From Alphaproteobacteria bacterium (GTDB taxonomy: Bacteria > Pseudomonadota > Alphaproteobacteria > RF32 > CAG-239): DNA of 64,000 bases. The translations under genes were made by a program, and so were the position numbers. The stretch covers positions 15,633-79,632 of the forward strand of contig CAAGHP010000002.1 in NCBI GenBank assembly GCA_900769705.1, written 5' to 3'. Below the pieces are notes generated by a model. The model had not been told where the DNA came from and ran no database searches. It saw nothing but the letters and a program-made list of their open reading frames with translations. Positions 5,851 through 64,000 of this stretch are shown here, one piece after another. How positions within the stretch are numbered: position 1 is the first letter of the stretch; every line of letters begins with the position of its first letter.

Positions 5851-5880
5851 AACTAAATTTTAATTATTAACTTATTTATT

Positions 5881-6615
5881 ATGATACATTTTACTAATAA
5901 ATCGTGTTTTTTAATTGGCAGAAACCGTAAAACACCGCAGCCTCTTTTAGTCGCATCCGATAAAGTCGGCTTTGGGCTGAAAGCGGAAGATGTTTTGGCA
6001 ATCGTAAGTTATAATCTTGTGTTTGCCCTAAACGCTCAAGCTGCGAATGAACTGAAAAAAATTGCCGATAAGTCGCTTTGCCTGTATGATTTGCCGGACT
6101 ATTGCTTTGAGGCAGATTTTGCAGCATGCGACAATGATTTTCGGCACAAAGCGGAGATGCTTTGTCAAAACGGCTGCAAAGTAGATGAAAAGCAGCTACA
6201 TCAGCCTGTGCTATGGTTTTTGGCAGAGCCGGTTTGGTTTTATAACCAAAATGAAAAGCCTAAGGACTATCTTCTGGCGGCGCTTATATATCTGAACCGC
6301 GACAGCTTTACACTCAAATATTCTATGAATTTTGATGAGGCACGCGTTCATGATATTATCGGCTTTGTGCTGGATGATTTTGTGTTTTCGCTGAATACGG
6401 CTGCCAACTGTATGCTTTTTGAGATGGTGCAGAATGAAAAATGCTTGTTCCGCGCTACAAAAGACGGAGAGTACGGCGTAGGGCGAAAAGTTACGCAAAC
6501 TCCGGAATTTTCTAAGCTTATCAATATCTTGCAAAATTATTGCGTGATAGACAACAGTGTATATCTGCCTTTTTTGAGGTGGAAAACCGATAATTCTGAA
6601 AAACTGATTTTTTAA
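5881..6615 (+). CDS. hypothetical protein, paralog family member A
   Basis: 244-aa ORF behind a strong promoter with no recognisable domain. Its N-terminal block LAIVSYNLVFALN aligns with LGIVCQGVIFALN of ORF 7240. Confidence 0.55.
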   Translation: MIHFTNKSCFLIGRNRKTPQPLLVASDKVGFGLKAEDVLAIVSYNLVFALNAQAANELKKIADKSLCLYDLPDYCFEADFAACDNDFRHKAEMLCQNGCKVDEKQLHQPVLWFLAEPVWFYNQNEKPKDYLLAALIYLNRDSFTLKYSMNFDEARVHDIIGFVLDDFVFSLNTAANCMLFEMVQNEKCLFRATKDGEYGVGRKVTQTPEFSKLINILQNYCVIDNSVYLPFLRWKTDNSEKLIF

Positions 6616-6626
6616 CTTAAATTATT

Positions 6627-7109
6627 ATGTTTATGGACAGCAAATTTAACATTAAAGTGGATGCTCCAAGCGAGTTGGCGTATATTACCGAGCTTGGACA
6701 TGTTCAGGTTCTGCCTGTGTTGGAAATAGCCAAGCGTGATAAACTTTGGGGAATTAAATGCGGCAATATTATCGTAGCGCTGAAAAATTCAAAGTTTAAC
6801 AACTGGATTCACGCCATGAAATCAGAGCGGGTTTTGTCGCCAAAATGGAAAATTTCTTTGCCGCTGGTGGATGATTTGTGCGATTGCTATGCAGCAAAAG
6901 ACAACTTCCGCAAGACTTTGGATTTTTTGCACGTTCACTCGGTTGATGCCGATGATTGGCTGGACGGCTGGTACTGGTCGGGCGAAGAAACCGGATTTGA
7001 TTCTGATACTATACATACTTTTGATATGAAAGACGGTATGTATTCTAAGCATGATCGCCGCGACAACAACGGTTTTGTGCGTTATGCTTTAGTGAGATTG
7101 CCAGAGTAA
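6627..7109 (+). CDS. hypothetical protein, co-transcribed with 5881
   Basis: 160-aa ORF 12 bp downstream of the previous gene. A terminator follows it. Confidence 0.5.
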   Translation: MFMDSKFNIKVDAPSELAYITELGHVQVLPVLEIAKRDKLWGIKCGNIIVALKNSKFNNWIHAMKSERVLSPKWKISLPLVDDLCDCYAAKDNFRKTLDFLHVHSVDADDWLDGWYWSGEETGFDSDTIHTFDMKDGMYSKHDRRDNNGFVRYALVRLPE

Positions 7110-7158: not shown

Positions 7159-7168
7159 GTTTATAGGC

Positions 7169-7197
7169 TTGACAAAAAAATAAAAATATGTATACTA
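7169..7197 (+). promoter_or_regulatory. sigma70 promoter, family copy B
   Basis: cTTGACAaaaaaataaaaatatgTATACT, nearly identical to copy A including the A-rich spacer. Confidence 0.6.
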
Positions 7198-7239
7198 AAA
7201 CTGTATTTTAATTATTTAACTTTTTAAATTTTTACTATT

Positions 7240-7581
7240 ATGTCTAATGGTTTTATTCAAACGCCATGCCCGCTGGTTTTTTATAACGGCCGAGAGGGCA
7301 AATTGGAACTTTCATCCAGAGTTGATACGGATAAGTGCCATTTAGTGTTGGGCATTGTTTGCCAAGGAGTTATTTTTGCATTAAATGATTTTAGCAAACG
7401 CTCCTTAATCGGTTTTCAATCTTCTGATTCTCATCTTGCAAAAATTCTGCCGAATGATAATCCGAAAGCAGTTGAAACCATGCACAATATTTTGCTGCAA
7501 AAAACCATAACTATGTTATCGTTTCATTGCAATGTTGATACTAATGTTGTTAAAAAACCTCTGTTATTATGGAAAGAGTAA
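7240..7581 (+). CDS. hypothetical protein, short paralog of 5881 N-terminal domain
   Basis: 113-aa ORF sharing the motif C.L...R....L.IV....VIFALN with the 5881 product. It has the same promoter and leader type. Confidence 0.5.
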   Translation: MSNGFIQTPCPLVFYNGREGKLELSSRVDTDKCHLVLGIVCQGVIFALNDFSKRSLIGFQSSDSHLAKILPNDNPKAVETMHNILLQKTITMLSFHCNVDTNVVKKPLLLWKE

Positions 7582-9807: not shown

Positions 9808-9818
9808 ATAACTTTAGC

Positions 9819-9847
9819 TTGACAAAAATCACAAAAAATGTATATAT
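9819..9847 (+). promoter_or_regulatory. sigma70 promoter, family copy C
   Basis: cTTGACAaaaatcacaaaaaaTGtATATAT. The downstream leader shares the AAATTnnAATTATTAAC element with copies A and B. Confidence 0.55.
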
Positions 9848-9892
9848 TTCAGCTAAATTCAAATTATTAACAATTTAAATTATTTTGAGCGT

Positions 9893-10573
9893 ATGAATAT
9901 TTTAAAAAGACTGTACTTACAGTACACAGCATTGAAAGGCAATTTTACCTTAGGTACTTTAATCGGCTTGTGCGAGGTTTATGAATATGACCTTGATGAA
10001 AGCAAAAATTGGCAGGCCGAAGTTGCATGGAATATGAAGTGGAGCCAAAAGGACGGCATGACAACAAACCGCGAGCTGCGCCGCATTTTGAGCATTTTCT
10101 TTGTCAACCATACTTTTATGAGTGACAAAGCTTTTGAAAAGGTAATGGCTAATCGTAGACGAGTGCTGCCTTTGGTTATGGCTTGTTTGAAAAAACGTCA
10201 AAAGCCTTTGAATATGGTCGAAAGCACGGTTATAGCCAAACTTCCGCAAGAAAATTTTGAACTTCTGCCCCGACCTCTGCATCCGCGGATTGAAAAAGAG
10301 CTTTTGACTTCTGATGAGGTTCAGAAAGTTTTTTGGTACTGCAATCGGTTTGAACTTTCTACCGATTCTGAAATGAGCTTAGTACTGCTGGCTACCGGAA
10401 ACAGTTATGCCGCCACAACCAGCAAAAATATTGACTATAAAAAGCTGCTGCTTGAATATGTCAAAAACAATAAAGAAGCATTTAACAATGATTATTCTTT
10501 TGATTTGCTGTGTAAACAGGACGGATTAAACGAGATCAAAGAGATTGTTTTAAGCCGCCGTGCTGATGTATAG
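9893..10573 (+). CDS. hypothetical protein
   Basis: 226-aa ORF bracketed by its own promoter and terminator. No domain recognised. Confidence 0.5.
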   Translation: MNILKRLYLQYTALKGNFTLGTLIGLCEVYEYDLDESKNWQAEVAWNMKWSQKDGMTTNRELRRILSIFFVNHTFMSDKAFEKVMANRRRVLPLVMACLKKRQKPLNMVESTVIAKLPQENFELLPRPLHPRIEKELLTSDEVQKVFWYCNRFELSTDSEMSLVLLATGNSYAATTSKNIDYKKLLLEYVKNNKEAFNNDYSFDLLCKQDGLNEIKEIVLSRRADV

Positions 10574-10613: not shown

Positions 10614-10642
10614 TTGACAAATTAAAGCACTTTGTCTATATT
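10614..10642 (+). promoter_or_regulatory. sigma70 promoter (TTGACA-17-TATATT)
   Basis: Exact consensus -35 with a 17-bp spacer, placed right after the terminator. Confidence 0.6.
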
Positions 10643-10681
10643 TTCTGACATATTTCATATTATTATCTAAAGTGTATTTTT

Positions 10682-11776
10682 ATGGGAAAGTTTAATTATT
10701 TCAAAATGCTGTCAAAGGCCTGCACCAGCAGATTGACTGATTTGGAAGTAGATGAGTTATGCCAGCAATATTGCCGCAACGAGGCAAATTGGGCGGGCAA
10801 TTTACTTTCGTTCCAGTTATCAAAAATACCGGATATTCAAGTTGCCGGCTACTTAAAAGTTTATGGTAAGAAACTGTGGCTGCTTTATTTCAAAATTATC
10901 GGCGCCAAACCATACGGCACGGAAGTGCAAAAGCTGCTGATTTACGGTATGCCGTATGATATTTTTACGCTACTGCCGCACAATTTGAGCATTGACGGAG
11001 AATTGTTACTGATAGAAATGCAAAAAATAAACGAGTCGCCTGACGACAGCTTTATTTTAGCAAAACTGGAATGGTATTTGCAGCATTATGCTTTGTCGTT
11101 TGAGGCTTTACTGAAGCTGATTGATCAGTCCGAAAAGCTCCAAGCGGCAAATAAATCTCAGAATTTTGCTGTGCTGCAGCCTTTGTGTTTTGCTGTGCAG
11201 AAATTTGCGGAAAGCTCTAAGCCCAATGCTTTGTCAAGCGTGGAAACACAGCTCAGAATTTTGAATTTAGCCGATGACGGACAGTTGATAAAAAGTCTTT
11301 TGCATTTCTTTGATATGAGGAATATTCCAAATGAAAAGGTTGTGCAAAAGCTGATTGAAATCGGTAATATCGATTATCTGAAAGAGCTTCTTTCACACAG
11401 CTGCGTTCACGAACAAAAAGAAAAAGTCTACCATGCTTTTCCGCAGCTTAAAACTGAATTGTTGCTTTCCGAAATCGGAGCGGCGGCTTGTCAGCTTAAT
11501 CGGAGCGAGGCTCTCTATGCCAAGCATCATGACTATGCTAAGTTGGTGCAGGGCTATTGTTCGGGATTTCCGATGTGCTTTCTCAGTGAATCAGGCAAAG
11601 TTATGCCGATGCTGCTGATTTGCAAGGGCCTGTATATCAGCGCCGGCACCAAGGAAGGGCGTTGCCGCTGGATAGAAAAGGCAATTGAATATTGCCGCTT
11701 CTATAAGAACATTACAGAACTTCAACAGGTTATTCCTTTGCTGAAACAGGCTTTGGCTGAAGAAAAAGCTTTATGA
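10682..11776 (+). CDS. hypothetical protein
   Basis: 364-aa ORF with its own promoter and terminator. No domain recognised. Confidence 0.5.
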   Translation: MGKFNYFKMLSKACTSRLTDLEVDELCQQYCRNEANWAGNLLSFQLSKIPDIQVAGYLKVYGKKLWLLYFKIIGAKPYGTEVQKLLIYGMPYDIFTLLPHNLSIDGELLLIEMQKINESPDDSFILAKLEWYLQHYALSFEALLKLIDQSEKLQAANKSQNFAVLQPLCFAVQKFAESSKPNALSSVETQLRILNLADDGQLIKSLLHFFDMRNIPNEKVVQKLIEIGNIDYLKELLSHSCVHEQKEKVYHAFPQLKTELLLSEIGAAACQLNRSEALYAKHHDYAKLVQGYCSGFPMCFLSESGKVMPMLLICKGLYISAGTKEGRCRWIEKAIEYCRFYKNITELQQVIPLLKQALAEEKAL

Positions 11777-22479: not shown

Positions 22480-23427
22480 TTATTTATCGGCAATCATAGC
22501 CAAAGCTTTGTCGGTATATTCTTTCATGATTTCGGCGCTGGATTTTAATTTAGCGCGTTCTTCATCAGAAAGTTTTGGAGAAATAACGTGGAAAATACCT
22601 TTTTTGTTAATAACTGTCGGCAAAGACAAACTTACGCCTTTAACGCCTTCAATATCATCATGATGTGAAGACACAGTTAAAATAGCATATTCGTTATTGT
22701 TAATAGCGCGGCAAATCTGTGTCAAAGCGCCGGCGATACCATAGAATGTGGCACCTTTGCCTTCAATAATTTTATAGGCAGCATTAACAACGCCGTCTTT
22801 GATTTCAGCTTTTTTAGCATCGTCCAAAACCTTATTTACGCTAGCTGCGTATTCATCCAAAGACAAAGTTCCTGCTTCGGCGTTAGACCAAATCAAAACT
22901 TCGCTGTCGCCGTGTTCGCCGATAACGTCTGCGTGAACGGATTTTGTGGAAACACCCAAATAAAAAGCCAGCAAGGTTCTAAAACGGGAGGTATCCAAAA
23001 CCGTGCCGCTGCCGATAACGCGTTCTTTTGGAAAACCAGAAAGTTTGCGGGCAACTTCTGTCATAATGTCAGCCGGATTAGCGGTAATCAGCAAGATTGA
23101 ATCCGGAGCGTATTTGGCAACCTGCGGAATAATGCTTTCAAAAATTTTAACATTGCGTCCCAAAAGGTCAATACGAGTTTCACCCGGTTTTTGATTTGCA
23201 CCGGCGGTAACGATAACAACTTCGCAGCCGTCCAAATCTTCATAAGTTCCGGCTTTTATTTTTCCGGCATGTCCAAATGGAGCGGCATGGGCAATATCCA
23301 TAGCTTCAGCCTGAGCTTTTTTCTCATTCATATCAATCAATACAACTTTGTGGGCAACGCCTGTCATCATCAAAGAAAATGCAGCAGCACTTCCAACAGA
23401 ACCGGCACCGATAATACCAACTTTCAT
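22480..23427 (-). CDS. ldh: L-lactate dehydrogenase (LDH/MDH superfamily, Gln at the substrate-specificity position)
   Basis: N-terminus is MKVGIIGAGSVGSA. Active-site loop TAGANQKPGETRIDLL carries Q rather than R, which is the LDH signature. IGEHGDS motif is also present. Confidence 0.75.
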   Translation of the reverse strand: MKVGIIGAGSVGSAAAFSLMMTGVAHKVVLIDMNEKKAQAEAMDIAHAAPFGHAGKIKAGTYEDLDGCEVVIVTAGANQKPGETRIDLLGRNVKIFESIIPQVAKYAPDSILLITANPADIMTEVARKLSGFPKERVIGSGTVLDTSRFRTLLAFYLGVSTKSVHADVIGEHGDSEVLIWSNAEAGTLSLDEYAASVNKVLDDAKKAEIKDGVVNAAYKIIEGKGATFYGIAGALTQICRAINNNEYAILTVSSHHDDIEGVKGVSLSLPTVINKKGIFHVISPKLSDEERAKLKSSAEIMKEYTDKALAMIADK

Positions 23428-23546
23428 GTTTTATCTCCAATTAAAAATATGTTCAAAAATTCATTTACTTATATAGATATCTTTATGGTTAAATTGCAAT
23501 ACCTTTTTTGAATTTTTTGCAATTTTTTTTACATAAAAAAACAGGG

Positions 23547-23575
23547 TTGACAGTTTAAGCGAAAGTTTATATAGA
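23547..23575 (+). promoter_or_regulatory. sigma70 promoter (TTGACA-17-TATAGA)
   Basis: gTTGACAgtttaagcgaaagtttaTATAGA, upstream of ybaK. Confidence 0.5.
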
Positions 23576-23581
23576 AAAATT

Positions 23582-24079
23582 ATGAAAAATGTAGAGAAAA
23601 TGATAAAAACTAACGCTATGCGGATTGTGGAAACTGCCAAAATTCCGTATAAGGTGTATGAATATGAGGTGACCGACGGTGTTGACGCCAAAAGTGTGGC
23701 GCAATATTTGCAAAAGCCGGAAGAGCAGGTGTTTAAAACTTTGGTGACGCAAGCGCCAAACGACCAGCACGGTTTTGAACATTTTGTTTTTGTGATTCCG
23801 GCAAACGCCGAACTCAGCGTTAAAAAAGCCGCTCATGCCGCCGGTGTAAAAAATTTGGAAATGCTGCCGCTGAAAAAACTTTTGCCGCTGACCGGCTATG
23901 TGCATGGCGGTTGCTCTCCGTTGGGAATGAAAAAACAATTTCCGGTTTTTATTGATGAAACGGCAATTTTATTTGACACATTTTGCCTTTCGGGCGGAAA
24001 AATCGGTGTGACATTGGAGCTGAACGCCGAAGCTTTGGCCGCGGCAATCGGAGCAAAATTTGCAGATTTAACGCTGTAA
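23582..24079 (+). CDS. ybaK: Cys-tRNA(Pro)/Cys-tRNA(Cys) deacylase
   Basis: YbaK/ProX family. N-terminus is MIKTNAMRIVETAKIPYKVYEYE. A GGK motif is present. Confidence 0.8.
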   Translation: MKNVEKMIKTNAMRIVETAKIPYKVYEYEVTDGVDAKSVAQYLQKPEEQVFKTLVTQAPNDQHGFEHFVFVIPANAELSVKKAAHAAGVKNLEMLPLKKLLPLTGYVHGGCSPLGMKKQFPVFIDETAILFDTFCLSGGKIGVTLELNAEALAAAIGAKFADLTL

Positions 24080-24094
24080 ATAAGGAGTAAGAAA

Positions 24095-24529
24095 ATGAAA
24101 TATTTATTGATGGCTTGTTTATTACTGCCACTATCGGCGCAGGCATTTTGTTTGGGTGAGGTAAGTTCTTCAAGAGAAAACGGCTTGGGCGATACAGAAT
24201 ATCGCGACAGTAGCGGGCGTTTGCTTGGAACTTCACGCCAAAACGGACTAGGCGAAACCGAATATCGTGATAACAGCGGACGTTTGATAGGTACTTCCAG
24301 AGAAAACAGCTTAGGCGACACAGAATACCGTAGCAGCAACGGCACGCTGGCCGGAACCTCGCACCAAAACAGTTTGGGAGATACAGAATATCGCAGCAAC
24401 AGCGGCATGCTGATGGGAACGGCTCACAAAAACAGCCTCGGCGACACTGAGTATCGTGACAATATCGGACAGCTGAAGGAAACATCTCATAAAAACGGTT
24501 TGGGCGAAACAATCTATTATAATTACTAG
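24095..24529 (+). CDS. secreted tandem-repeat protein (6 x 21-aa NGLGDTEYRDxSGxLxGTSxx repeats)
   Basis: Signal peptide MKYLLMACLLLPLSAQA is present. The repeats are perfectly periodic. RBS is AAGGAG. Confidence 0.7.
   Translation: MKYLLMACLLLPLSAQAFCLGEVSSSRENGLGDTEYRDSSGRLLGTSRQNGLGETEYRDNSGRLIGTSRENSLGDTEYRSSNGTLAGTSHQNSLGDTEYRSNSGMLMGTAHKNSLGDTEYRDNIGQLKETSHKNGLGETIYYNY
24172..24510 (+). repeat. 63-bp tandem DNA repeat, about 5.5 copies (coding)
   Basis: ...aacggcttgggcgatacagaatatcgcgacagtagcgggcgtttgcttggaacttcacgcca... recurs with point differences. Confidence 0.8.
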
Positions 24530-24537
24530 GAGAATTT

Positions 24538-25008
24538 TTGATGAACGAAATTTTACGTTTGGCTATGGAACAGGCGCGCAAGACCATGAATGAAAATATC
24601 GGCGGTCCGTTCGGGGCTGCTGTGATTGCTGAAAACGGTGAAATTTTGGCCGTTACTTCAAACTCTGTTTTACGTGACAACGACCCAACAGCTCACGCCG
24701 AAGTCAACGCCATCCGCGCGGCCTGTAAAAAAATCGGCAGCTATGATTTAAGCGGCTGCGTCTTATACACCACGGCTTATCCTTGCCCGATGTGTTTATC
24801 AGCCATTATCTGGGCGAATATCAAAAAAGTATATTTCGGCTGCCGTCCCGAAGATGCCGAACATATTGGTTTTAGAGACGATTTTATTTATCGTTTTATA
24901 GAGGCTAAATGCCGCGACAAATCGGTGCTGGATATGGCGGAATTGGATAGGACGGATTGCTTGAAACTGTTTGAAGAATATCAGAAAAAAGCCAAAACTA
25001 TTTATTAG
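24538..25008 (+). CDS. CMP/dCMP-type zinc deaminase (TadA / guanine-deaminase-like)
   Basis: HAEVNAIR and PCPMC zinc-binding motifs are present. Length is 156 aa. Confidence 0.7.
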   Translation: MMNEILRLAMEQARKTMNENIGGPFGAAVIAENGEILAVTSNSVLRDNDPTAHAEVNAIRAACKKIGSYDLSGCVLYTTAYPCPMCLSAIIWANIKKVYFGCRPEDAEHIGFRDDFIYRFIEAKCRDKSVLDMAELDRTDCLKLFEEYQKKAKTIY

Positions 25009-25159
25009 TTTGTTTCTTTTTTTTACCAAAAAATAACCCGATTTCAAAAAGCAAATAAGTAGGTGCAGTCAGCAGTAACTGACTGACGATGTCCGGCGGA
25101 GTTAAGATGCCGGAAACTAACAAGATTCCGACAAAAATATAAGAACGCTTGCTTTTCAT
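24998..25159 (-). pseudogene. tatC: tatC 3'-remnant (last ~50 codons only)
   Basis: Minus-strand translation gives MKSKRSYIFVGILLVSGILTPPDIVSQLLLTAPTYLLFEIGLFFGKKKKQTNK. This aligns with E. coli TatC C-terminus [40 protein letters not shown]. An in-frame stop lies 13 codons upstream of the ATG. Confidence 0.55.
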
Positions 25160-25451
25160 CCGCCCGTTATTTTCAGCGGGTTTTATTTTAGGTATTTAAT
25201 GAGGTTTGGAAATATGAATAAAAATGTTGAAAACTGGCAGTGCAGCGGTCGTTCAATGATAGAAATGCTTGGATTGTGGCGCTTAATGAAAATACAGGCT
25301 CAAACCGCCATTATGTCTGCGGCAAAGCTTCTACAGAATATTATTACATTCATATTGGCTGCAAACCTTATAATTGGAGCGAAATCGCAAAAAAATGTTC
25401 AGTTTGTGCAACGCAAATATGTGATATAAAATTTCTTCTCAACAACAATGG

Positions 25452-25850
25452 CTAACTGTTGAATTTTTTTATAGCTTTATCAAAACTGCCAAGTTTAACG
25501 GCTTCTTCATAAAGGCGGACTTTATAATCAATTTTTTGCAAATATTTTTGAAATTGCTCAATTTGTGTCAAAATTTTAAGTTGCTGTTGTTTAAACATTT
25601 CCAAACGCTGGGGCAGGGTGGAATCGCCCTCGCGGAACCAGTCGATGTATTGTTTGATACCCTTGAGCGGCATTCCGGTTTCTTTCAGACATTCAATAAT
25701 AGAAAGCCAGCCTAAATCGTTGTCAGAAAACATACGCAAGCCGGAACTGCTTTTACGCACAAACGGCAGCAAGCCTTCTTTTTCATAATAGCGCAGAGTG
25801 TGGACGGTCAGTCCGGTTTTGGCGGCAACTTGCCCAATTGAATAATACAT
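25452..25850 (-). CDS. MerR-family transcriptional regulator
   Basis: HTH segment YSIGQVAAKTGLTVHTLRYYEKEGLL is followed by a dimerisation coiled-coil. Length is 132 aa. Confidence 0.85.
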   Translation of the reverse strand: MYYSIGQVAAKTGLTVHTLRYYEKEGLLPFVRKSSSGLRMFSDNDLGWLSIIECLKETGMPLKGIKQYIDWFREGDSTLPQRLEMFKQQQLKILTQIEQFQKYLQKIDYKVRLYEEAVKLGSFDKAIKKFNS

Positions 25851-25900
25851 CTTTGAATTTTCCGTAAAGTATATATTTTTTTTGCAGATTTTTAAAAAAT

Positions 25901-25938
25901 CTTGACTTAGAGTAAACTCTAAAGATTAGACAGTCAAG
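25901..25938 (+). promoter_or_regulatory. MerR-type operator/promoter: TTGACT, 19-bp spacer with perfect dyad TAGAGTaaACTCTA, weak -10 TAGACA, flanked by CTTGACT/AGTCAAG inverted repeat
   Basis: The 19-bp spacer with an internal dyad is the hallmark of MerR-activated promoters. It is divergent from the merR-like gene. Confidence 0.55.
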
Positions 25939-26132
25939 TGATAAAGAAAAAATTCATAGGAGGAAAAATGTTTAGATTGCAAAATCGTCAGGTGGCTTAG
26001 GTTGACTTAATTTATCGCGAAGCGGTTAAATCTTTGAAACATATTTTATATAATAACCATTTGTCGCATAATATCTATTATGTATAGTTTTAAATATTCA
26101 AAACCTGAATTTATTAAATCAAGCCAGGTTTT

Positions 26133-27713
26133 TTACAGCAAGGACGCTTTTATAAGCTGCTGCGTATATGGTTGTTGCGGCTGTTCAAATATCTGTGTTG
26201 TTACACCTTGCTCAATAATTTTGCCATTTTTCATTACCATAACTCGGTGTGACATAGCTCGAATTGCATTCATATCATGTGAAATAAAAATATATGATAT
26301 CTTATATTTTATCTGCAAACTTTTCAAAAGTTCTACAATTTGGGCTTGAACCGTCACATCTAGTGCCGATGTCGGCTCGTCCAAAATAATTATTTTTGGA
26401 TTTAAAATCAAAGCCCGTGCCAAAGCAATTCTTTGCCTTTGGCCTCCGGAAAATTCATGCGGATATGCATCCATAATTGATTCATCTAGATTAACTTCTT
26501 TTAATATTTCTTTGATTTTATTTATTTTTTCACTTTTCCGAAGTTGCTTGAAATGAACTGTTAAACCTTCTTCAATAATTTGTTTAATGGTCATACGCGG
26601 ATTTAAGGAATTGTATGGATCTTGAAAAACAATTTGCAAATCTTTGCTGAACTGATGCTGATTTTGATATTCATTGTCGGTCAATATTTCTATATTACCG
26701 CGATGTTTCAATAAGTTAATAACAGCTAAAGCCAAAGATGTTTTACCGGAGCCGGATTCGCCGACAATCCCTAAAGTTTCCCCTTGTCTTAAATCAAAAC
26801 TAACCTTATCAACGGCCTTGAAATCAGCAGTCACCCTGCCCCAAATATTTTTTTTGCGAGGAAAAGATACTTCTATATCATTAGCTTTAAGTATAATTTT
26901 TGAATCTTTTTTTTGCTGCAAATTCAATAATAAATTAGATGATATTAACTTTTTAGTGTAACTTGTTTGCGGGTTTTCAAACACCTGTTTTGCAGTTCCG
27001 TATTCTAATAAATCGCCTTTGTACATAACAGCAATATGGTCGGAGATTTTATGAACTAAACGTAAATTATGGCTGATGAAAATAATGGACATATTTAGTT
27101 TTTGTTTTAATTCCAGCAGCAAATCAATAATTTGCTCTTGGATTGTCACATCCAAAGCCGTGGTCGGCTCATCGGCAATCAAAATCTGCGGATTGTTGGC
27201 AATCGCCATAGCTATCATAACTCTTTGCCGCTGCCCGCCGGAAAGTTCAAACGGATAAGCATTTATTTTTTGTTCAGGCTCTGGAATTTTAACCAACTGC
27301 AGCAATTCAAATGTACGTTTTTTTATTTGTTCTTTGCTTAAATTTTGATGTAATTCCAAACTTTCCGCTATTTGTACGCCGATTTTGTGCAGCGGATTCA
27401 ATGAAGACATAGGTTCTTGGAAAATAAAAGATATTTTATTACCGCGAATTTGCTGAAATTCTTTGTTATTAAGACCTATAAGCTCTGTTTGATTAAAAAC
27501 TATGGAAGATTTTTCTAAATGATAAGCCTTTGGATAAGGCAGCAAACCCAAAATCGATAATGCCGTTACAGATTTTCCTGAACCGGATTCACCGACTATT
27601 CCAAGAATTTCCCCCTGCTCTAATTTTAGGCTTATGTTATTTACAGCGCAAAAATCAGTTTGGCCGTTTCGCTTGAAATATACTGATAAGTGATTGATTT
27701 CCAAGATATTCAT
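26133..27713 (-). CDS. yejF: ABC transporter ATP-binding protein with two fused ABC domains (YejF/microcin C-oligopeptide type)
   Basis: Two sets of Walker A ([16 protein letters not shown]), signature LSGGQRQR and Walker [11 protein letters not shown] are present. Confidence 0.85.
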
Positions 27714-55818: not shown

Positions 55819-57282
55819 TTATAAAAAACTTTCATAAACTTTAGAATTTTTTGCTAATTCTTGTTCTAAAATTTTTGCGCCATATTTTTCAACCAATGTC
55901 GGTTCAGAAGACAATAGAGATGTGCCTAAGCCAAAAGAATGATTTTGCCACTTAACTCCGGCTAATTCCAATATAGTCGGTGCCCAGTCAAATTGATTAA
56001 ACGGTTTGTAAATAATTTGTTCTTTAATATTCTTACCAATAACTATATTATAAGTTTTTCGTGTCGGCACTTGCTGTAATAGATATTCTATATTTGAAGG
56101 CATCATAAGATGATCTCCGGTAACAATAAGAATTGTATCATCATAAAATGATTGCTTTTTAAACCAATCTATAAATTCGGCAACCTGAAAAGACGTGCAT
56201 TTAACAACATCACGCATATCACCGTATTTTTGCGTGCATTTATCATCGTGATAACCTAAAGGGAAATGTGTATCTAAAGTTGTTCCGCTAATAAAAAAGT
56301 TTTTATTTGAATTTGCAATTTTTGTAATTTTAGACTTAAAAATTTCAAAAAAAGCTCTATCTTTTATTGCTCGATATCCATTGTTACTTGTTTGCTTTAT
56401 AAATATTGCAGGATTGCGATTGACTAAATCAAATCCTCCCTCAGCCTTCTTAAATCCGTGTAATCGTACAAATTCCGAAGTTCCGACAAATTCCATATAT
56501 GAAGATTGTGCAAAATAAGTATAATAACCATGATCATCAAACCAATCTGACACACAATACAAATTCGGCAGAAACTTTTTTTCTCCTTTTGTATTGCTTA
56601 TAGATTGAAAATACATAACCAGAGGTACACCGCACAAAGTTGATACATGGCTTGCTATAGTCCAATTCGTACCAGGCATATTGTTATATCCACTGAAAGA
56701 TAAACCTTTTTCATTTTCTAAATCACTTAATAAATTTTCGCCAAATATCTGCTTATTAGAAAATGATTGTTCTAACGATTCTACAAATAATATCACTATA
56801 TTTTTTTTATTTGCTGTCTGAAATTTCAAAGTATTACCGTCCACATAATTTTGCTCATAAAAATTTGAATACCTGAAAACATTTAACACCCTTTTTATAT
56901 CTGCATAATCAACCATTGAATGCTTTTCAGCAAACATATTTGGAGCATAGCTAAAACTAAAAAAACAAAAGCTGACTAAAAAATATAAAATACAAGAAAG
57001 CCCATATTTTCCTAACCTCAAACTTTGAGAATATTGCTTAGTATAAAAAATCAATAACCCCAGCAAAATAATTAAAATCATACCAAAAGTTATCTGTAAA
57101 ACTGTATACCAAGGTATAACTGATAAAGAATCTTTCAAAAATATGGTGTGAAAAATGAGTTGGTTTATCGAATAATTTCCGAAAATAACTTTAGAAGCGA
57201 ACAAAATACTGCTTAGGCAATAACATAAAATAGATAAATATATAAATAATTTTGCTGCTAATTTAGTTATTTTTTTTAACAT
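55819..57282 (-). CDS. sulfatase-family membrane protein (LtaS/OpgB-like phosphoglycerol transferase)
   Basis: N-terminal TM helices are present. Metal-binding block IVILFVESLEQSF and the GDH-type motif ILIVTGDHLMMPS are found. Confidence 0.65.
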   Translation of the reverse strand: MLKKITKLAAKLFIYLSILCYCLSSILFASKVIFGNYSINQLIFHTIFLKDSLSVIPWYTVLQITFGMILIILLGLLIFYTKQYSQSLRLGKYGLSCILYFLVSFCFFSFSYAPNMFAEKHSMVDYADIKRVLNVFRYSNFYEQNYVDGNTLKFQTANKKNIVILFVESLEQSFSNKQIFGENLLSDLENEKGLSFSGYNNMPGTNWTIASHVSTLCGVPLVMYFQSISNTKGEKKFLPNLYCVSDWFDDHGYYTYFAQSSYMEFVGTSEFVRLHGFKKAEGGFDLVNRNPAIFIKQTSNNGYRAIKDRAFFEIFKSKITKIANSNKNFFISGTTLDTHFPLGYHDDKCTQKYGDMRDVVKCTSFQVAEFIDWFKKQSFYDDTILIVTGDHLMMPSNIEYLLQQVPTRKTYNIVIGKNIKEQIIYKPFNQFDWAPTILELAGVKWQNHSFGLGTSLLSSEPTLVEKYGAKILEQELAKNSKVYESFL

Positions 57283-60378: not shown

Positions 60379-60816
60379 ATGAAAATTCTTGTACAAAAAG
60401 TTCTAAACGCTTCCGTAAACGTAAATCAGCAGCTTGTTTCACAAATAGACCGAGGATTTTTGCTGTTTATCGGCGTTGAAAAAGGCGACACTCATACTCA
60501 AGCCGATTTTTTGACAAAAAAAATTGCAAATCTTAGGATTTTTGAAGATGAAAACAATAAGATGAATCTATCAATTCAAGATGTTAAGGGAGAAATTCTG
60601 GCGGTGTCGCAATTTACCTTAGCCGCTGATTTGAGCCGCGGAAACCGTCCGGGATTTGAAAGCGCCGCTCGCCCTGAAGAAGCTAAACAACTATATGAAT
60701 ATTTTGTTGAACAGCTGCAAACATATAATCTTCCGGTGCAAACAGGTATTTTTCAAGCCGATATGAAAGTTGCGCTGGTCAACGACGGTCCCTGCACTTT
60801 TATTTTGCAAAAATAA
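60379..60816 (+). CDS. dtd: D-aminoacyl-tRNA deacylase
   Basis: N-terminus MKILVQKV..ASV.V, motif SQFTLAAD and Gly-cisPro-like NRPGFE are present. Length is 145 aa. Confidence 0.85.
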   Translation: MKILVQKVLNASVNVNQQLVSQIDRGFLLFIGVEKGDTHTQADFLTKKIANLRIFEDENNKMNLSIQDVKGEILAVSQFTLAADLSRGNRPGFESAARPEEAKQLYEYFVEQLQTYNLPVQTGIFQADMKVALVNDGPCTFILQK

Positions 60817-60824
60817 CCGCATAT

Positions 60825-60861
60825 AAAAAATCGGAAAACTTAAAGTTTTCCGATTTTTTAT
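60825..60861. terminator. bidirectional terminator (dtd / small-peptide array boundary)
   Basis: Perfect 10-bp stem ATCGGAAAAC ttaaa GTTTTCCGAT followed by TTTTTT. Confidence 0.8.
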
Positions 60862-61047
60862 TCATTTGTCTTTATTAAACATAATCACATTAAGACAAAT
60901 CCACATAAGAACAGCCAAAAACATAACGACTGTTTTCAACATATTGCGCAGCATCTCATCAGGCTGAACAGTTTCTATATAAAACACCAACAACGCAATA
61001 AGCAGCATCAGCGCAATAGCAAGCACCGATAATTTCTTTTTAGTCAT
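60862..61047 (-). CDS. small hydrophobic protein, 61 aa, 2 TM (array gene 1)
   Basis: MTKKKLSVLAIALMLLIALLVFY... lies 9 bp downstream of array gene 2. Confidence 0.5.
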   Translation of the reverse strand: MTKKKLSVLAIALMLLIALLVFYIETVQPDEMLRNMLKTVVMFLAVLMWICLNVIMFNKDK

Positions 61048-61056
61048 AAGCCAATC

Positions 61057-61482
61057 TTAAAATTTATTAAACAACAATAAAGAAACATACAAACGGCTAA
61101 AATAATTGCCAATATTGTCAAAAATCTGCCCCCAGTCAACTAATAAAGCAAAACCGACAGCAAAAGCCAACACCAAAGCAATAGTAAAAATTACCGAACG
61201 CAATTTGACAGCTAGTTTATTATACTCTTGATACTCGAACAAAGCCAAATTGCCGTAATTACTATATTCTTCAGCTTTTTTCAGCTTTTCTTTTTTAAAC
61301 ATTTTCAAACTTGGCAACAAGTCAAAGAGCCAAGAAAACAGCAAACGGCTTATTGTGACAAAAACAATAAGGCCAACCAGTGGCAATGTTTCCTCAACTG
61401 TTGTTACAAACGGCGCCAGAGCTATCAGTACAATCAAGATAATTGTGAGGCTCCACTTCAAATAATAACCATTCATACGCAT
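61057..61482 (-). CDS. small membrane protein, 141 aa (array gene 2), paralog of 62253..62729
   Basis: TM helices at both ends. C-terminal LLVDWGQIFDNIGNYF aligns with WKVDWLPIFHNVKEWL of the 158-aa protein. Confidence 0.55.
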   Translation of the reverse strand: MRMNGYYLKWSLTIILIVLIALAPFVTTVEETLPLVGLIVFVTISRLLFSWLFDLLPSLKMFKKEKLKKAEEYSNYGNLALFEYQEYNKLAVKLRSVIFTIALVLAFAVGFALLVDWGQIFDNIGNYFSRLYVSLLLFNKF

Positions 61483-61519
61483 AAAAATTTAATGAAACAT
61501 AAATATAAAATTTGCTGTT

Positions 61520-61547
61520 ATGTTAGCATTCATTAGATTTTTGTCAA
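61520..61547 (-). promoter_or_regulatory. sigma70-like promoter (TTGACA-16-TAACAT) with conserved AT-rich leader
   Basis: Leader ...caaattttatatttatgtttcattaaatttttatgcgtATG is near-identical to the leader at 61814-61841. Confidence 0.5.
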
Positions 61548-61565
61548 GATTTAAATAATAAAAAA

Positions 61566-61598
61566 CACAGTCTTCTCAATGAAGACCGTGTTTTTTTT
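61566..61598. terminator. bidirectional terminator
   Basis: CACAGTCTTC tcaat GAAGACCGTG followed by T8. Confidence 0.7.
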
Positions 61599-61635
61599 GG
61601 GAAATAACAGATTAAAAAATCAGATAATTAGAATT

Positions 61636-61770
61636 TCAGCTAAAGAGCGAACACACCCAAGCAGAAAAATTTCTAATGTTTTCAATCCAATTAACCATCA
61701 AAGCCAAAATGAACACCACTATACCGCAAAATAAAATGGTGACTAACCATCTAAAATAATAGTTATACAT
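61636..61770 (-). CDS. small hydrophobic peptide, 44 aa, 1 TM (array gene 3; below the ORF-track cutoff)
   Basis: MYNYYFRWLVTILFCGIVVFILALMVNWIENIRNFSAWVCSLFS. It has its own promoter and terminator. Confidence 0.45.
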   Translation of the reverse strand: MYNYYFRWLVTILFCGIVVFILALMVNWIENIRNFSAWVCSLFS

Positions 61771-61813
61771 ATTACAAAAAAATTTAAAATATATAAAAAT
61801 AAAATTTGTAATT

Positions 61814-61841
61814 ATGTTACCATGTCTCAGTTTTTTGTCAA
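61814..61841 (-). promoter_or_regulatory. sigma70-like promoter (TTGACA-16-TAACAT), duplicate of the 61520 promoter
   Basis: ttgacaaaaaactgagacatggtaacataattacaaattttatttttat... versus ttgacaaaaatctaatgaatgctaacataacagcaaattttatatttat... Confidence 0.5.
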
Positions 61842-61855
61842 GTTTTAAAATAAAA

Positions 61856-61892
61856 AAGACTGTAAAATTCTTGCGAAAATCACAGTCTGATT
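61856..61892 (-). terminator. terminator of array gene 4
   Basis: GACTGT ...18 nt... ACAGTC followed, on the minus strand, by TTTTTT. Confidence 0.5.
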
Positions 61893-61897
61893 TTTCA

Positions 61898-62179
61898 TTA
61901 ACGGAACATCATTAACAGTATATCATTTTGGACTGAATTTTTTAAGGCTCCGGTTTTTGCCAATTTTCTGCCGATATGAATATCATAGACGCACAACAGA
62001 CAGAAAATACAAAACAAAGCCCCCGCACCCGCAATAACGCTATGAAAAACTATACCAATCAAAGCAAATGCTGCACAAAAAACAATCAATACACTGAAAA
62101 CAATCTTCTCACTAATTAAACTCATCTTCATAAAAATTTTAAAAACACAAATATATTTTATCAATTTTATATATAGCAT
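61898..62179 (-). CDS. small membrane protein, 93 aa (array gene 4) with glycine-zipper-like helix
   Basis: ...FHSVIAGAGALFCIFCLLCV... Confidence 0.5.
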   Translation of the reverse strand: MLYIKLIKYICVFKIFMKMSLISEKIVFSVLIVFCAAFALIGIVFHSVIAGAGALFCIFCLLCVYDIHIGRKLAKTGALKNSVQNDILLMMFR

Positions 62180-62198
62180 ATTTATGTTTTTCCGTCAA
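62170..62198 (-). promoter_or_regulatory. sigma70 promoter (TTGACG-17-TATATA)
   Basis: Minus strand reads ttgacggaaaaacataaatatgctatatata. Confidence 0.55.
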
Positions 62199-62205
62199 TA
62201 CAGTT

Positions 62206-62240
62206 CTATAAAAAATTGCAGAAGTTTTAGCAACCTCTGC
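62206..62240 (-). terminator. terminator of array gene 5
   Basis: GCAGA ...13 nt... TCTGC followed by a T-run. Confidence 0.5.
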
Positions 62241-62252
62241 AGTTTTTTTAAC

Positions 62253-62729
62253 CTAGCTGATAATTCCGCTAAAGATAGAGCCTATGGTTTGCAGCCATTC
62301 TTTTACATTATGAAAAATCGGCAACCAGTCAACTTTCCACCCCAGCAAACCTACGGGCAGAAAACAGATACAAAACTTAACCGCATCCAGCTTGATTTTT
62401 CTGAACTTAATCCTAAATTCGGCATCTTTTTCTTTTTCAAATTTTTCCTTAGCCTCGCCCCATTTCTTTTCTGCTTGCGCACAGGCTTCATCAATATCTT
62501 TGCCAAACTGTTTATGGTCGGCCAGAAAAACCAAAAAGCAATGAACAGACGCCAAGCTTAAAACAAGCATAATAAACAGAGCCAAGCTCGAAGTTTTATC
62601 GGACAGAGACAAAGAAAAAATAAACATACTGCCCAAAAATATTGTGATAACAATCATTGTCACAAATTCGGTTACAGAGATTTTTTTCTCATGTTTAGCG
62701 ATAAAATCAAAATAAAAATTCATAAGCAA
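62253..62729 (-). CDS. small membrane protein, 158 aa (array gene 5), paralog of 61057..61482
   Basis: N- and C-terminal TM helices flank a charged KEKFEKEKDAEF middle. It shares the VDW..IF.N motif with array gene 2. Confidence 0.55.
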   Translation of the reverse strand: MLMNFYFDFIAKHEKKISVTEFVTMIVITIFLGSMFIFSLSLSDKTSSLALFIMLVLSLASVHCFLVFLADHKQFGKDIDEACAQAEKKWGEAKEKFEKEKDAEFRIKFRKIKLDAVKFCICFLPVGLLGWKVDWLPIFHNVKEWLQTIGSIFSGIIS

Positions 62730-62811
62730 AAATAATTTAAATGAAACATAAAAATAAAATATTGCCTAAAGTTTATGACTTTTTATACTTTTGTCAATAT
62801 CAAAATAAAAA

Positions 62812-62848
62812 AGTCCGTAAAATCCTTATGAATTCTACGGTCCTCTTT
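62812..62848 (-). terminator. terminator of array gene 6
   Basis: GACCGTA ... TACGGAC hairpin followed by T6 on the minus strand. Confidence 0.45.
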
Positions 62849-62856
62849 AATTATTC

Positions 62857-63072
62857 TCAATCATTCCGAGGCAGAATGTCAAACAAATCTACCAATAGAC
62901 GGGCGGCCCAAAGTAAACAAGCTCCGGCAAAAATACCGACAGCACCGGCAACAATAGCACCTAAACAAAATACGGTGCTCGAAACTAAAATCAAAACAAT
63001 TCCGGCAATTACAGCTAAATAAGTTATTACAACTGCAAAATTGTGGAAATAAAGCATAAGCATTTTACGCAT
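62857..63072 (-). CDS. small hydrophobic protein, 71 aa (array gene 6) with GxxxG glycine zipper
   Basis: ...LGAIVAGAVGIFAGACLLWAARLL... Confidence 0.5.
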   Translation of the reverse strand: MRKMLMLYFHNFAVVITYLAVIAGIVLILVSSTVFCLGAIVAGAVGIFAGACLLWAARLLVDLFDILPRND

Positions 63073-63166
63073 AAAAAGAAAGATTTAAAAATTAAACATA
63101 CTAATAAAAAAACTATTCTAATAAAAACACGATTCAATATTTTTGTCAATATCACAAAACAAAAAA

Positions 63167-63200
63167 ACTGCAGAAGTTGTTACTCTTCCACAGTTTTATT
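63167..63200 (-). terminator. terminator of array gene 7
   Basis: CTGCAGAAG ... CTTCCACAG imperfect hairpin followed by a T-run. Confidence 0.4.
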
Positions 63201-63206
63201 AAGCAC

Positions 63207-63383
63207 TTATTTTGCATTTTCCGAATTACAGATAAATACAAAAGCAAACAAAGTCATATAAAACACAAACATAATCGCTGGCGGATATGCTTCCATCTCC
63301 ATAACATCAAGACAAGAGAAACATACGATAATTCCCAGCATAATCACAGCCATACAGCCACAAACAATGCCCAACATTTTCAT
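63207..63383 (-). CDS. small hydrophobic peptide, 58 aa (array gene 7; below cutoff)
   Basis: MKMLGIVCGCMAVIMLGIIVCFSCLDVMEMEAYPPAIMFVFYMTLFAFVFICNSENAK. Its ATG overlaps the stop of a 30-codon upstream ORF (ATGA). Confidence 0.4.
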   Translation of the reverse strand: MKMLGIVCGCMAVIMLGIIVCFSCLDVMEMEAYPPAIMFVFYMTLFAFVFICNSENAK

Positions 63384-63472
63384 AGTTTTTTGTTAATTTT
63401 CCACAAACAAACCATGACAAACACTAAACACATAACTTCAAAAATTTCGATTACTAAATTTGCTACAGCCAT
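63380..63472 (-). CDS. tiny hydrophobic ORF, 30 aa, translationally coupled to array gene 7
   Basis: MAVANLVIEIFEVMCLVFVMVCLWKINKKL. Its stop overlaps the next start. Confidence 0.3.
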   Translation of the reverse strand: MAVANLVIEIFEVMCLVFVMVCLWKINKKL

Positions 63473-63533
63473 AACAAAATATTTTAAATTAAACTTAATT
63501 ATAAAAATTTCATCGCGCCACGCTGTTTATGTT

Positions 63534-63635
63534 TTACTTATCGCCATGTTTGTCAATATAACCCATAAAAATTCCGGCCATACCTAAAACACACAAGATT
63601 AGTAAAAACGCGGCAATCATTATAAAATTTTCCAT
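63534..63635 (-). CDS. tiny hydrophobic ORF, 33 aa (array gene 8)
   Basis: MENFIMIAAFLLILCVLGMAGIFMGYIDKHGDK. A TTGACA lies about 65 bp upstream with a conserved ttttatttttatgtg leader. Confidence 0.3.
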   Translation of the reverse strand: MENFIMIAAFLLILCVLGMAGIFMGYIDKHGDK

Positions 63636-63716
63636 ATGTTAATAATTTTAGTTACACATAAAAATAAACTTATATGTTTGTCTTATCTTATTTTCTTGTT
63701 TTTGTCAATAATTTTT

Positions 63717-64000
63717 CTAAAAACTTTGCCGCAGCCATAGCTGCCAGCTTTCGCTGTTGCGTCCGATGTTGTGACTGCCCTCATAGCCGATTTCCAGCGA
63801 TAAATTATCGGTTATGCCTAACGAAGCGGCAGCTTTATAAATCAGCCTGTCGCCAAATTTACTGGTAGCCCATGTTTTTTCGGCATTAAAATGCAGACGC
63901 ACAACGCCAAAATCTTTCAAAATACCAATTTCCGGCGCCAATCCGCCCCAGCTGTTGTGCGGAATAAAACCGCCATATGCGCCGTTTATTTTCAGCAAGC
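63717..64000 (-). CDS. outer-membrane beta-barrel protein (Omp25/Omp31/OmpA-like porin family), 3' part; continues beyond window
   Basis: Frame is open to the window edge. The C-terminus ...EIGYEGSHNIGRNSESWQLWLRQSF* ends in the beta-barrel terminal Phe. Confidence 0.5.
   Translation of the reverse strand, partial: LLKINGAYGGFIPHNSWGGLAPEIGILKDFGVVRLHFNAEKTWATSKFGDRLIYKAAASLGITDNLSLEIGYEGSHNIGRNSESWQLWLRQSF

Follow-up and report, generated by a model that had tools for sequence, protein, structure and literature searches.

A 64-kb stretch of DNA from a gut alphaproteobacterium (contig CAAGHP010000002.1; the whole stretch is called the window hereafter) carries an array of small genes at positions 60823-63714 of its minus strand, which is composed of six insulated transcription units. 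Each unit has a near-consensus TTGACAAAAA promoter, an unstructured AU-rich leader devoid of a Shine-Dalgarno (SD) sequence, one to three open reading frames (ORFs) for small membrane proteins, and an intrinsic terminator. The array may well represent a lineage-restricted accessory island of this bacterium, in which six insulated cassettes supply the inner membrane with proteins of a protective or envelope-modulating kind; this is the explanation that we tentatively prefer on the basis of sequence comparison. In the following, all coordinates are positions in the window, and the strand of the array is minus unless stated otherwise.

Organization of the array

The six units encode proteins of 33, 30 and 58 amino acids (aa), of 71 aa, of 156 aa, of 77 aa, of 44 aa, and of 141 and 61 aa, respectively. 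Reading of the strand and alignment of the regions upstream of all starts have revealed the same order of elements: a hairpin with a T run, a few A/T bases, TTGACAAAAA, a spacer of 16-17 nt, a −10 box, the leader and the ATG. A preliminary description of this DNA had listed nine minus-strand ORFs of 61, 141, 44, 93, 158, 71, 58, 30 and 33 aa in six cassettes, most of them insulated by a promoter, leader and terminator of their own. All nine are present at the places given there, the number of cassettes is correct and their insulation has been borne out, while some of the lengths have had to be revised. Two of the cassettes hold more than one gene: the 33-, 30- and 58-aa genes are probably co-transcribed as a single operon, because no terminator precedes the promoter-like stretch inside it, and the 141- and 61-aa genes probably form another. 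At the far end of the array, the position and symmetry of the last hairpin suggest that it serves both the 61-aa gene and the convergent dtd.

Revision concerns three of the ORFs. The gene listed with 93 aa exists, but the start assigned to it lies inside its own promoter spacer; the real start at 62131, which rests on the leader pattern and on calls of 77 or 75 aa in other assemblies, yields 77 aa. The 158-aa ORF is also a genuine gene, although it encodes 156 aa from the ATG at 62723. The 44-aa ORF is present in the window but is not a native gene. Its counterpart is an intact 112-aa gene in all eight of the other strains of the same species that were fetched, and in the window allele an in-frame stretch of exactly 204 bp, bounded by the two copies of a 13-bp repeat, ATTTTATTTTGCG, is missing. 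The exact 44-aa product is absent from a collection of 15 billion proteins, and the allele could be either a real strain allele or an assembly collapse. Four ORFs are shorter than 60 aa, rather than three as had been counted.

The common promoter-leader module

The promoter and leader of each cassette are a copy of one module of about 80 nt. It comprises a sigma-70 −35 box near consensus (TTGACAAAAA), the 16-17-nt spacer, a −10 box and an AU-rich leader of 35-45 nt, which has a G+C content of about 13% and runs directly into the ATG. The −10 hexamers are of the TAACAT, TAGAAT or TAAACT type, at least those in cassettes 5 and 6 being preceded by TGn. For a profile hidden Markov model, 20 promoter-leaders were taken from cassettes of the three sister species, namely species A, to which the window belongs (L001-L008), species B (L009-L011) and species C (L012; GCA_963632615.1). 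In a scan of the 64 kb this model matches seven sites in the array with E-values of 2e-12 to 3e-3, and its matches outside the array are marginal (best E 0.02). TTGAC is invariant among the 20 cassettes, most of which also share a conserved TTTATnTTTATGT core that starts about 10-15 nt beyond the predicted −10 box. Orthologues of the 141-type gene with a synonymous divergence (dS) as high as 1.3-1.5 have the same leader core and the same −35 box, and the cis-module itself therefore appears to be under selection.

The leaders fold with minimum free energies of −2.6 to −7.5 kcal/mol and z-scores of −1.6 to +1.2, no better than shuffled sequences. Terminator-like hairpins, which sit after each unit, are enriched in the array (11 versus 3.7 ± 1.8 in shuffles); a generic promoter scan of the array has given no significant enrichment (20 versus 14.3 ± 3.6). 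An SD core in the region from −17 to −4 is found in none of the nine array ORFs and in 28 of the 34 ordinary genes of the window (Fisher p = 9e-6). The absence of SD sequences from the leaders, already pointed out in the preliminary description, is thus confirmed, and since most ordinary genes do carry one, it is a property of the array genes and not of the organism.

SD-less AT-rich leaders have also been seen in another part of the window, on the plus strand (5816-5880, 7163-7242, 9813-9892 and 10615-10681), where each follows a terminator and a (C/G)TTGACAAA(AA) promoter. They precede orphan genes for non-membrane proteins, namely 5881-6615 (244 aa), an ORF from near 7240, 9893-10573 (226 aa) and 10682-11776 (364 aa), and a 160-aa gene just downstream of the 244-aa gene (6627-7109) likewise has no SD. 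At these sites the array leader profile gives only weak matches (E 0.02 to 7), and four of these SD-less orphan ORFs, the ORF near 7240 lying outside the scan, contain no Pfam family. The genes of this genome seem to fall into two classes, housekeeping genes that carry an SD and orphans that do not.

In most cassettes an ATG is conserved in the leader core (61474-63714), opening a mini-ORF of three to nine codons (MFH-stop, MCN-stop, MFNF-stop and similar), the stop of which overlaps the main start (ATGA) in the 156-aa cassette. The possibility of an upstream mini-ORF has been rejected, as its length and sequence are not conserved and it is missing in some cassettes, and the ATG is treated as a DNA or RNA motif. 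A tRNA scan has found none, and a candidate for a second array, at 23427-26133, consists of ordinary small genes.

Protein families

According to hydropathy, the 33-, 30- and 44-aa products have a single transmembrane (TM) segment, the 58-, 61-, 71- and 77-aa products have two, and the 112-, 141- and 156-aa products, as well as a 147-aa product of other strains, have three. They belong to at least six orphan families. One of these, designated F1, is a 3-TM family consisting of the 44/112-, 141- and 156-aa paralogues together with 128- and 137-aa genes of sister species, as has been established by all-against-all BLAST and multiple alignment (pairwise E about 1e-4 to 1e-21). The 147-aa protein and a second 137-aa protein match F1 weakly (best pairwise E about 4e-4 to 1e-2). 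F1 proteins carry the motif M-N-G-Y-Y-x-K/R-W at the N-terminus, then a pair of TM helices that flank a conserved PF, a variable linker rich in Lys and Glu, the third TM helix and a C-terminal amphipathic tail with (V/I)DWxxIFxNxxxW. AlphaFold2 models of the 141-aa protein (predicted local distance difference test score, pLDDT, 82) and of the 156-aa protein (pLDDT 74; four-helix) agree with these features of the alignment, in that TM1 is followed by a long helix made of TM2 and one arm of the linker, a second long helix runs back and finishes as TM3, and an amphipathic helix closes the chain. Sequence similarity (E 0.001-0.01) hints at a distant relationship between the 71- and 77-aa proteins.

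That no protein family is recognizable, as had been stated earlier, has been borne out by Pfam and NCBIfam scans, neither of which gives a significant match for any array peptide. PHROGs are matched only at E-values of at least 0.008, searches of PDB and BFVD by fold have yielded no specific match, and scans of IMG/VR with single proteins and with the leader pattern have detected no relatives and no leader motif. A marginal match to TMCO1 in a PDB-profile search (E 0.041) raised the possibility of the Oxa1/TMCO1/Get1 superfamily, with its arrangement of TM segment, cytosolic coiled coil and TM segment; it is supported by neither fold search and has been judged compositional. Rfam gives nothing at gathering thresholds, and at permissive thresholds only terminator hairpins mis-scored as microRNAs. 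A metagenome scan with the leader pattern has returned the same families only, and an exhaustive hmmsearch of 1.84 billion proteins has returned 11 relatives, which all seem to come from a single group of gut metagenomes and metagenome-assembled genomes (MAGs). The 71-aa family has 11 clusters among 5.8 billion proteins, and in NCBI nr its member is a hypothetical protein of 'Alphaproteobacteria bacterium'. A literature search has provided general context only.

Variation and selection among sister species

In species A, B and C alike, the array lies between an Lnb_N gene and dtd, but the order of cassettes differs: 33-30-58, (147), 71, 156, 77, 112, 141-61 in species A; 156, 147, 33-30-58, 75, 138-61 in species B; and 278, 193, 137, 30-58, 73, 156, 77, 137, 128, 140-64 in species C. 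The 147 in parentheses is an extra complete cassette, with a promoter, an F1-like gene and a terminator, which is inserted between the 58- and 71-aa genes in five of the eight species A strains and is not in the window. BLASTN comparison of species A with species B splits the arrays into modules, and the ends of the high-scoring segment pairs (HSPs) fall within about 10-27 bp of the TTGACAAAA boxes, at the junction of T run and −35 box. The flanking core genes are 86-89% identical in nucleotide sequence between the two species (dS 0.73-0.85), whereas the 147 module is 98.8% identical (dS 0), the 33-30-58 module 94.1% (dS 0.06-0.16), the 156 module 84% (dS 0.43), and the 71 and 141-61 modules 70-72% (dS 0.9-1.3). 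It follows from this mosaic of divergence that some cassettes crossed species recently, while others are much older or faster-evolving than the backbone. The preliminary description was silent on the shuffling of cassettes across species, on the single conserved module of about 80 nt, on the paralogy of three of the window ORFs and on the 44-aa ORF being a remnant; its statement that no mobile-element genes lie in or beside the array still holds. No integrase or transposase has been found at the array loci, and no attC-like site at 60801-63750 of the window.

Not all alleles are intact. In some metagenomes (P0096-P0100) split or truncated versions of the 147- and 156-aa genes are found, the 147-aa gene being represented by ORFs of 83 and 68 aa on the same contigs with the break in an A/T-rich stretch around EIKK, which indicates ongoing pseudogenisation or switching. 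Some extra cassettes of sister species (L012, 2036-2872 and 3058-3639; L094, 3-431) encode proteins with an N-terminal TM anchor and a long coiled coil of ERLEAERKKQEA-type repeats; their C-terminal domain resembles a J-domain by eye, with HPL in place of HPD, and has no significant Pfam family.

The reading frames are intact in the three species, and their lengths agree within a few residues in most cases. The ratio of nonsynonymous divergence (dN) to dS, calculated by the Nei-Gojobori method across the three sister species, is 0.12-0.35 for the 58-, 71-, 156- and 141-aa families, 0.37 for the 77-aa family and 0.4-0.7 for the 30- and 61-aa families, with synonymous divergence near saturation in several of the compared pairs. 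In the flanks, dtd and an SpmA/B-like 'Gate' gene have dN of 0.03-0.04 and dS of 0.73-0.85 between species A and B, as compared with dN of 0.04-0.5 for the array proteins. The array genes, with dN/dS below 1 throughout (0.12-0.7), are thus constrained and yet evolve about 3-15 times faster than their neighbours. The idea that the 138-aa orthologue is hyper-diverse, suggested by its many database clusters, has been abandoned because the sequences average 95% identity.

Contigs with array genes come from human stool metagenomes, including Hadza samples, identical proteins in NCBI nr are labelled 'Alphaproteobacteria bacterium' (MAG), and many independent assemblies call the array ORFs as genes. 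A Dtd-anchored scan with one genome per species has detected three moderately close genomes (73-84% Dtd identity), none of which has the array beside dtd. More distant relatives have single cassettes with the same promoter style in other genomic contexts: an F1 gene and a 64-aa partner beside a type IV pilin- or pseudopilin-like gene with an N-terminal GRSMIEMLGVLAIIGVLS (L095, 174-887), a 167-aa F1 gene between ileS and anmK (L097), and a cassette for a 38-aa TM peptide with an F1 cassette after it (L100).

Proposed function and alternative explanations

How could such an array work? The shared module would provide strong, coordinated and SD-independent expression. Open AU-rich leaders are the classical substrate of initiation assisted by ribosomal protein S1, and initiation on the array genes would probably involve binding of S1 to the leader. 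The TTTATnTTTATGT core may double as an operator or an RNA-binding site, and we infer that the same module serves, around the T run and −35 box, as a short-homology substrate for cassette shuffling. The products would act in the inner membrane as immunity- or exclusion-type factors, or as envelope-modulating factors, under diversifying ecological pressure. Presence and absence of cassettes, exchange across species, accelerated dN and occasional loss would together be the pattern of genes under ecological conflict. A protective role in particular, either as immunity against toxins that act on membranes or by keeping out phage or DNA, is possible if somewhat doubtful; it is favoured because the products look like constitutive membrane residents, not like secreted or tightly repressed peptides, and they are unlikely to be toxins themselves. 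It is also conceivable, though we think it rather unlikely, that the stretch of about 80 nt formed by junction, promoter and leader is a portable cis-module with a dual role, which would serve SD-independent expression and regulation via TTTATnTTTATGT and at the same time be the recombination site of a non-integron, promoter-bounded cassette system.

Several points weigh against this explanation. The protective role is deduced solely from evolutionary behaviour, and dispensable or weakly selected genes would show similar dynamics; the dN/dS of 0.4-0.7 of the 30- and 61-aa ORFs is compatible with weak constraint. The breakpoints are ends of BLAST HSPs that overlap by about 10-27 bp, and recombination at the junction is a putative mechanism. 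The −35 style and the SD-less AT-rich leaders recur at four or five other orphan genes of the window, so that the module may partly be a genome-wide style. Finally, no version of the locus has a toxin, secretion-system, phage or recombinase gene as a neighbour.

Among the alternatives, the most serious is a regulon responding to stress or host conditions, in which the products would be small membrane regulators or accessory subunits of envelope machinery and their variability would reflect weak constraint. Small membrane proteins often modulate transporters and sensors. A common regulator is suggested by the shared promoter-leader with its conserved core just past the predicted −10 box, all families are under purifying selection, and the 141-61 pair is kept even in another genomic context. 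However, genes for housekeeping accessory subunits usually lie beside those of the partner complex and do not normally undergo gain, loss, reordering or exchange across species, and the next-nearest genomes by Dtd similarity are without the array beside dtd. We regard such a regulon as unlikely.

Improbable is the possibility that F1 proteins are membrane-disrupting abortive-infection effectors, like those of the cyclic oligonucleotide-based antiphage signalling system (CBASS) or the pyrimidine cyclase system for antiphage resistance (Pycsar), or superinfection-exclusion proteins derived from prophages. The island does lie in a variable hotspot between core genes, and PADLOC has given one weak match, between the 156-aa subfamily and the '4TM' CBASS effector model PDLC00716 (best E 4e-5 at 21 bits; E of 0.01 or below for 8 of the 15 members). 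This match is partial (profile positions 164-254 of 302) and probably compositional, since it covers only TM helices and the Lys/Glu-rich stretch. No cyclase, sensor or other defence gene is adjacent in any locus, and a phage origin is not supported by IMG/VR, where no relatives were found, by PHROGs, with nothing better than E 0.008, or by BFVD, where there were none.

The preliminary description had compared the array with bacteriocin and immunity loci on the one hand and with type I toxin families on the other, and neither resemblance has found support. A locus for bacteriocin or microcin production, with small GxxxG peptides as toxins and TM proteins as the cognate immunity proteins, is hardly to be expected here. 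Small hydrophobic peptides beside TM proteins do resemble class II bacteriocin loci, and the 71- and 77-aa proteins have helices rich in GxxxG or AxxxG; however, inspection has revealed no double-glycine or Sec leader, the hydrophobic helices start within 2-10 residues of the N-terminus, and all the peptides look like integral hairpins. Neither an ABC/C39 exporter, a membrane fusion protein nor a modification gene is encoded within about 6-9 kb (Pfam context of 12 related loci), no version of the locus has a toxin gene, and the genes are transcribed separately instead of in toxin-immunity operons.

Membrane peptides of tandem type I toxin-antitoxin systems in the style of hok, ldr, ibs or tisB have a very low probability as well. 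Tandemly repeated small hydrophobic genes are typical of ldr and ibs loci, and the 33-, 30- and 44-aa products have a single TM segment and the size of such toxins. These three are the only ones that fit a criterion of a single TM segment within 60 aa, and the 44-aa ORF is a deletion artefact of the 112-aa gene; most products have 58-156 aa and two or three TM segments, and none matches a toxin family in Pfam or NCBIfam. The leaders are short, unstructured and open, with no translational lock, and the promoters are near consensus. Sequence scans, beyond which a novel small RNA would need RNA data, have found no consistent plus-strand pair of promoter and terminator over or flanking the ORFs and no small RNA of Rfam.

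It is just as improbable that the ORFs are non-functional or proto-genes, in which case the composition of a T-rich strand with promoters would suffice to produce hydrophobic ORFs. T is indeed strongly over-represented on the coding strand (plus-strand AT skew up to 0.33), which favours codons for Phe, Leu, Ile and Val, all families are orphan and broken alleles occur. Against this, frames and nearly identical lengths are kept across three species despite saturated synonymous sites, most families have a dN/dS of 0.12-0.46, old paralogues share conserved terminal motifs, and the AlphaFold2 models are confident from shallow alignments. The last alternative, decay of a single larger gene into fragments or an integron-like array of attC cassettes, is suggested by small ORFs of a single orientation separated by hairpins and can practically be dismissed, the decay of one gene having been thought unlikely already in the preliminary description: each ORF has full-length orthologues, the hairpins have short stems with a T run behind them, no cassette lacks a promoter of its own, there is no RYYYAAC...GTTRRRY pair on either strand of 60801-63750, and no integrase is nearby.

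If the accessory-island explanation holds, the array provides a set of uncharacterised membrane-protein families from a poorly known, uncultured lineage of gut alphaproteobacteria, a natural example of translation from SD-less AU-rich leaders where ordinary genes use SD sequences, and a case of integrase-free, cassette-style variation of gene content by recombination at a shared promoter junction. It would be a testable system for SD-independent initiation and for the diversification of small membrane proteins under ecological conflict. If the module also had the dual role considered above, gut alphaproteobacteria would be able to assemble, shuffle and exchange a repertoire of inner-membrane proteins, for instance for immunity at the level of the membrane.

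Features of the array and neighbouring genes

Table 1. Features of the array in the order of transcription, with their positions in the window.
Feature	Position	Strand	Remarks
Promoter-leader module, cassette 1	63633-63714	−	TTGACAAAAA at 63708-63699; core TTTATTTTTATGT; no SD; nhmmer E 1.2e-10
33-aa single-TM peptide gene	63534-63635	−	Identical protein in sister-species locus L009 (dS 0.06); called on 395 contigs
Weaker internal promoter-leader-like stretch before 30-aa ORF	63470-63562	−	nhmmer E 0.003
30-aa single-TM peptide gene	63380-63472	−	Stop overlaps start of 58-aa gene (ATGA); 30 aa in all three species; dN/dS 0.4-0.7
58-aa two-TM protein gene	63207-63383	−	dN/dS 0.22-0.29
Intrinsic terminator, cassette 1	63164-63197	−	13-bp stem and T run
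Promoter-leader module, cassette 2	63070-63155	−	nhmmer E 1.5e-6
71-aa two-TM protein gene	62857-63072	−	GxxxG-rich second helix; dN/dS 0.12-0.26
Intrinsic terminator, cassette 2	62815-62840	−	Terminator scan
Promoter-leader module, cassette 3	62721-62803	−	nhmmer E 3.3e-10
156-aa 3-TM F1-family gene	62253-62723	−	Listed as 158 aa from an upstream TTG; dN/dS 0.26-0.30
Intrinsic terminator, cassette 3	62217-62241	−	Terminator scan
Promoter-leader module, cassette 4	62123-62204	−	−35 box TTGACG at 62198-62193; nhmmer E 4.2e-5
77-aa two-TM protein gene	61898-62131	−	77 or 75 aa by other callers; dN/dS 0.37
Hairpin and T run after 77-aa gene, probable terminator	61851-61887	−	Large loop; by eye only, not reported by terminator scan
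Promoter-leader module, cassette 5	61768-61847	−	TGn-extended −10; nhmmer E 7.2e-8
44-aa ORF, in-frame deletion allele of 112-aa F1-family gene	61636-61770	−	Strain comparison
Deletion junction	61725-61737	−	Sole remaining copy of 13-bp repeat ATTTTATTTTGCG; copies 204 bp apart in intact alleles
Intrinsic terminator, cassette 5	61560-61596	−	16-bp stem with flanking A and T runs; could act bidirectionally
Promoter-leader module, cassette 6	61474-61553	−	TGn-extended −10; nhmmer E 2.4e-12
141-aa F1-family gene	61057-61482	−	3 TM, cytosolic helical hairpin and amphipathic tail with VDWxxIFxN; dN 0.32-0.46, dN/dS 0.25-0.31
61-aa two-TM partner gene	60862-61047	−	Always directly downstream of 141-type gene; dN/dS 0.46-0.68
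Terminator hairpin between 61-aa gene and convergent dtd	60823-60861	unstranded	Terminator scan

On the upstream side, the array is bordered not by an Omp25/31-like porin gene, as had been proposed, but by the gene for a 580-613-aa DUF7843/Lnb_N/DUF7840 protein, whose C-terminus is encoded by 63717-64000. This protein and a DUF3015 protein are the conserved upstream neighbours (L001, 1241-3565), and the former ends in WLRQSF, an aromatic C-terminus as in outer-membrane proteins. Near the array there is also a gene for a sulfatase-family membrane protein (55819-57282, minus strand; at about 10200-11700 in L001-L008), which is called at 461, 487, 494 or 498 aa or split (228 aa; 335 + 132 aa) depending on the strain; these differences suggest start-region or frameshift variation. 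Elsewhere in the window, on the plus strand, a 144-aa secreted or lipoprotein-like ORF (24095-24529) contains about six tandem copies of a unit of about 20 residues (NGLGDTEYRDSSGRLLGTSR), and an overlapping antisense ORF mirrors its repeats.

Comparison with known systems

In the Borrelia erp/ospE-F 'upstream homology box' genes and in the Mycoplasma vlp/vsp arrays, a conserved upstream promoter/operator region precedes divergent coding parts. As in the present array, membrane-associated genes, paralogous or not, lie in tandem or dispersed behind nearly identical 5′ promoter-leader regions, and their content varies by recombination between strains. The present products are integral inner-membrane helical proteins rather than surface lipoproteins, their host belongs to the alphaproteobacteria, and no sequence homology links them to those systems; moreover, the array has no homopolymer tract long enough for phase variation, its A runs being of 4-6.

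Orphan immunity arrays, known from the acquired interbacterial defence islands of Bacteroidales and from orphan immunity clusters of contact-dependent inhibition and Rhs systems, are also made up of small genes that evolve fast, vary among strains, are exchanged horizontally and are each expressed on their own. The immunity proteins of pore-forming colicins have three or four TM segments and about 110-180 aa. F1 proteins are similar to those of the E1 type in size and 3-TM topology, although they match no immunity family of Pfam or NCBIfam, and, unlike orphan immunity arrays, the present locus has no toxin remnant, recombinase or mobile-element context; an immunity function for the array proteins is something that we purely infer.

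Tandem type I toxin families (ldr, ibs, hok and tisB) share with the array very small hydrophobic peptides arranged in tandem and mostly missed by annotation. They differ from it in that the array has given no antisense RNA signal in the sequence scans, its leaders are open rather than locked, its products are mostly larger and multi-TM, and its promoters are near consensus. Integron arrays and clusters of attC sites lacking integron-integrases (CALINs) are likewise unidirectional series of small orphan genes that vary in order and content as whole cassettes, whereas here attC cores and an integrase are lacking, a promoter and a terminator come with every cassette, and the junctions lie at the T run and −35 box.

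Conserved, mostly transmembrane and unannotated small ORFs of gut bacteria have reportedly been catalogued by Sberro et al. and in GMSC. Those catalogues list families, and the cassette architecture, the shared leader and the shuffling go beyond them. In comparison with all these systems, what is new is the protein families and the specific promoter-leader module. A multigene island for small membrane proteins that varies among strains and keeps its 5′ regions conserved is a familiar kind of locus, and the promoter-bounded cassette shuffling and the SD-less leaders within an SD-using genome are what is unusual here.

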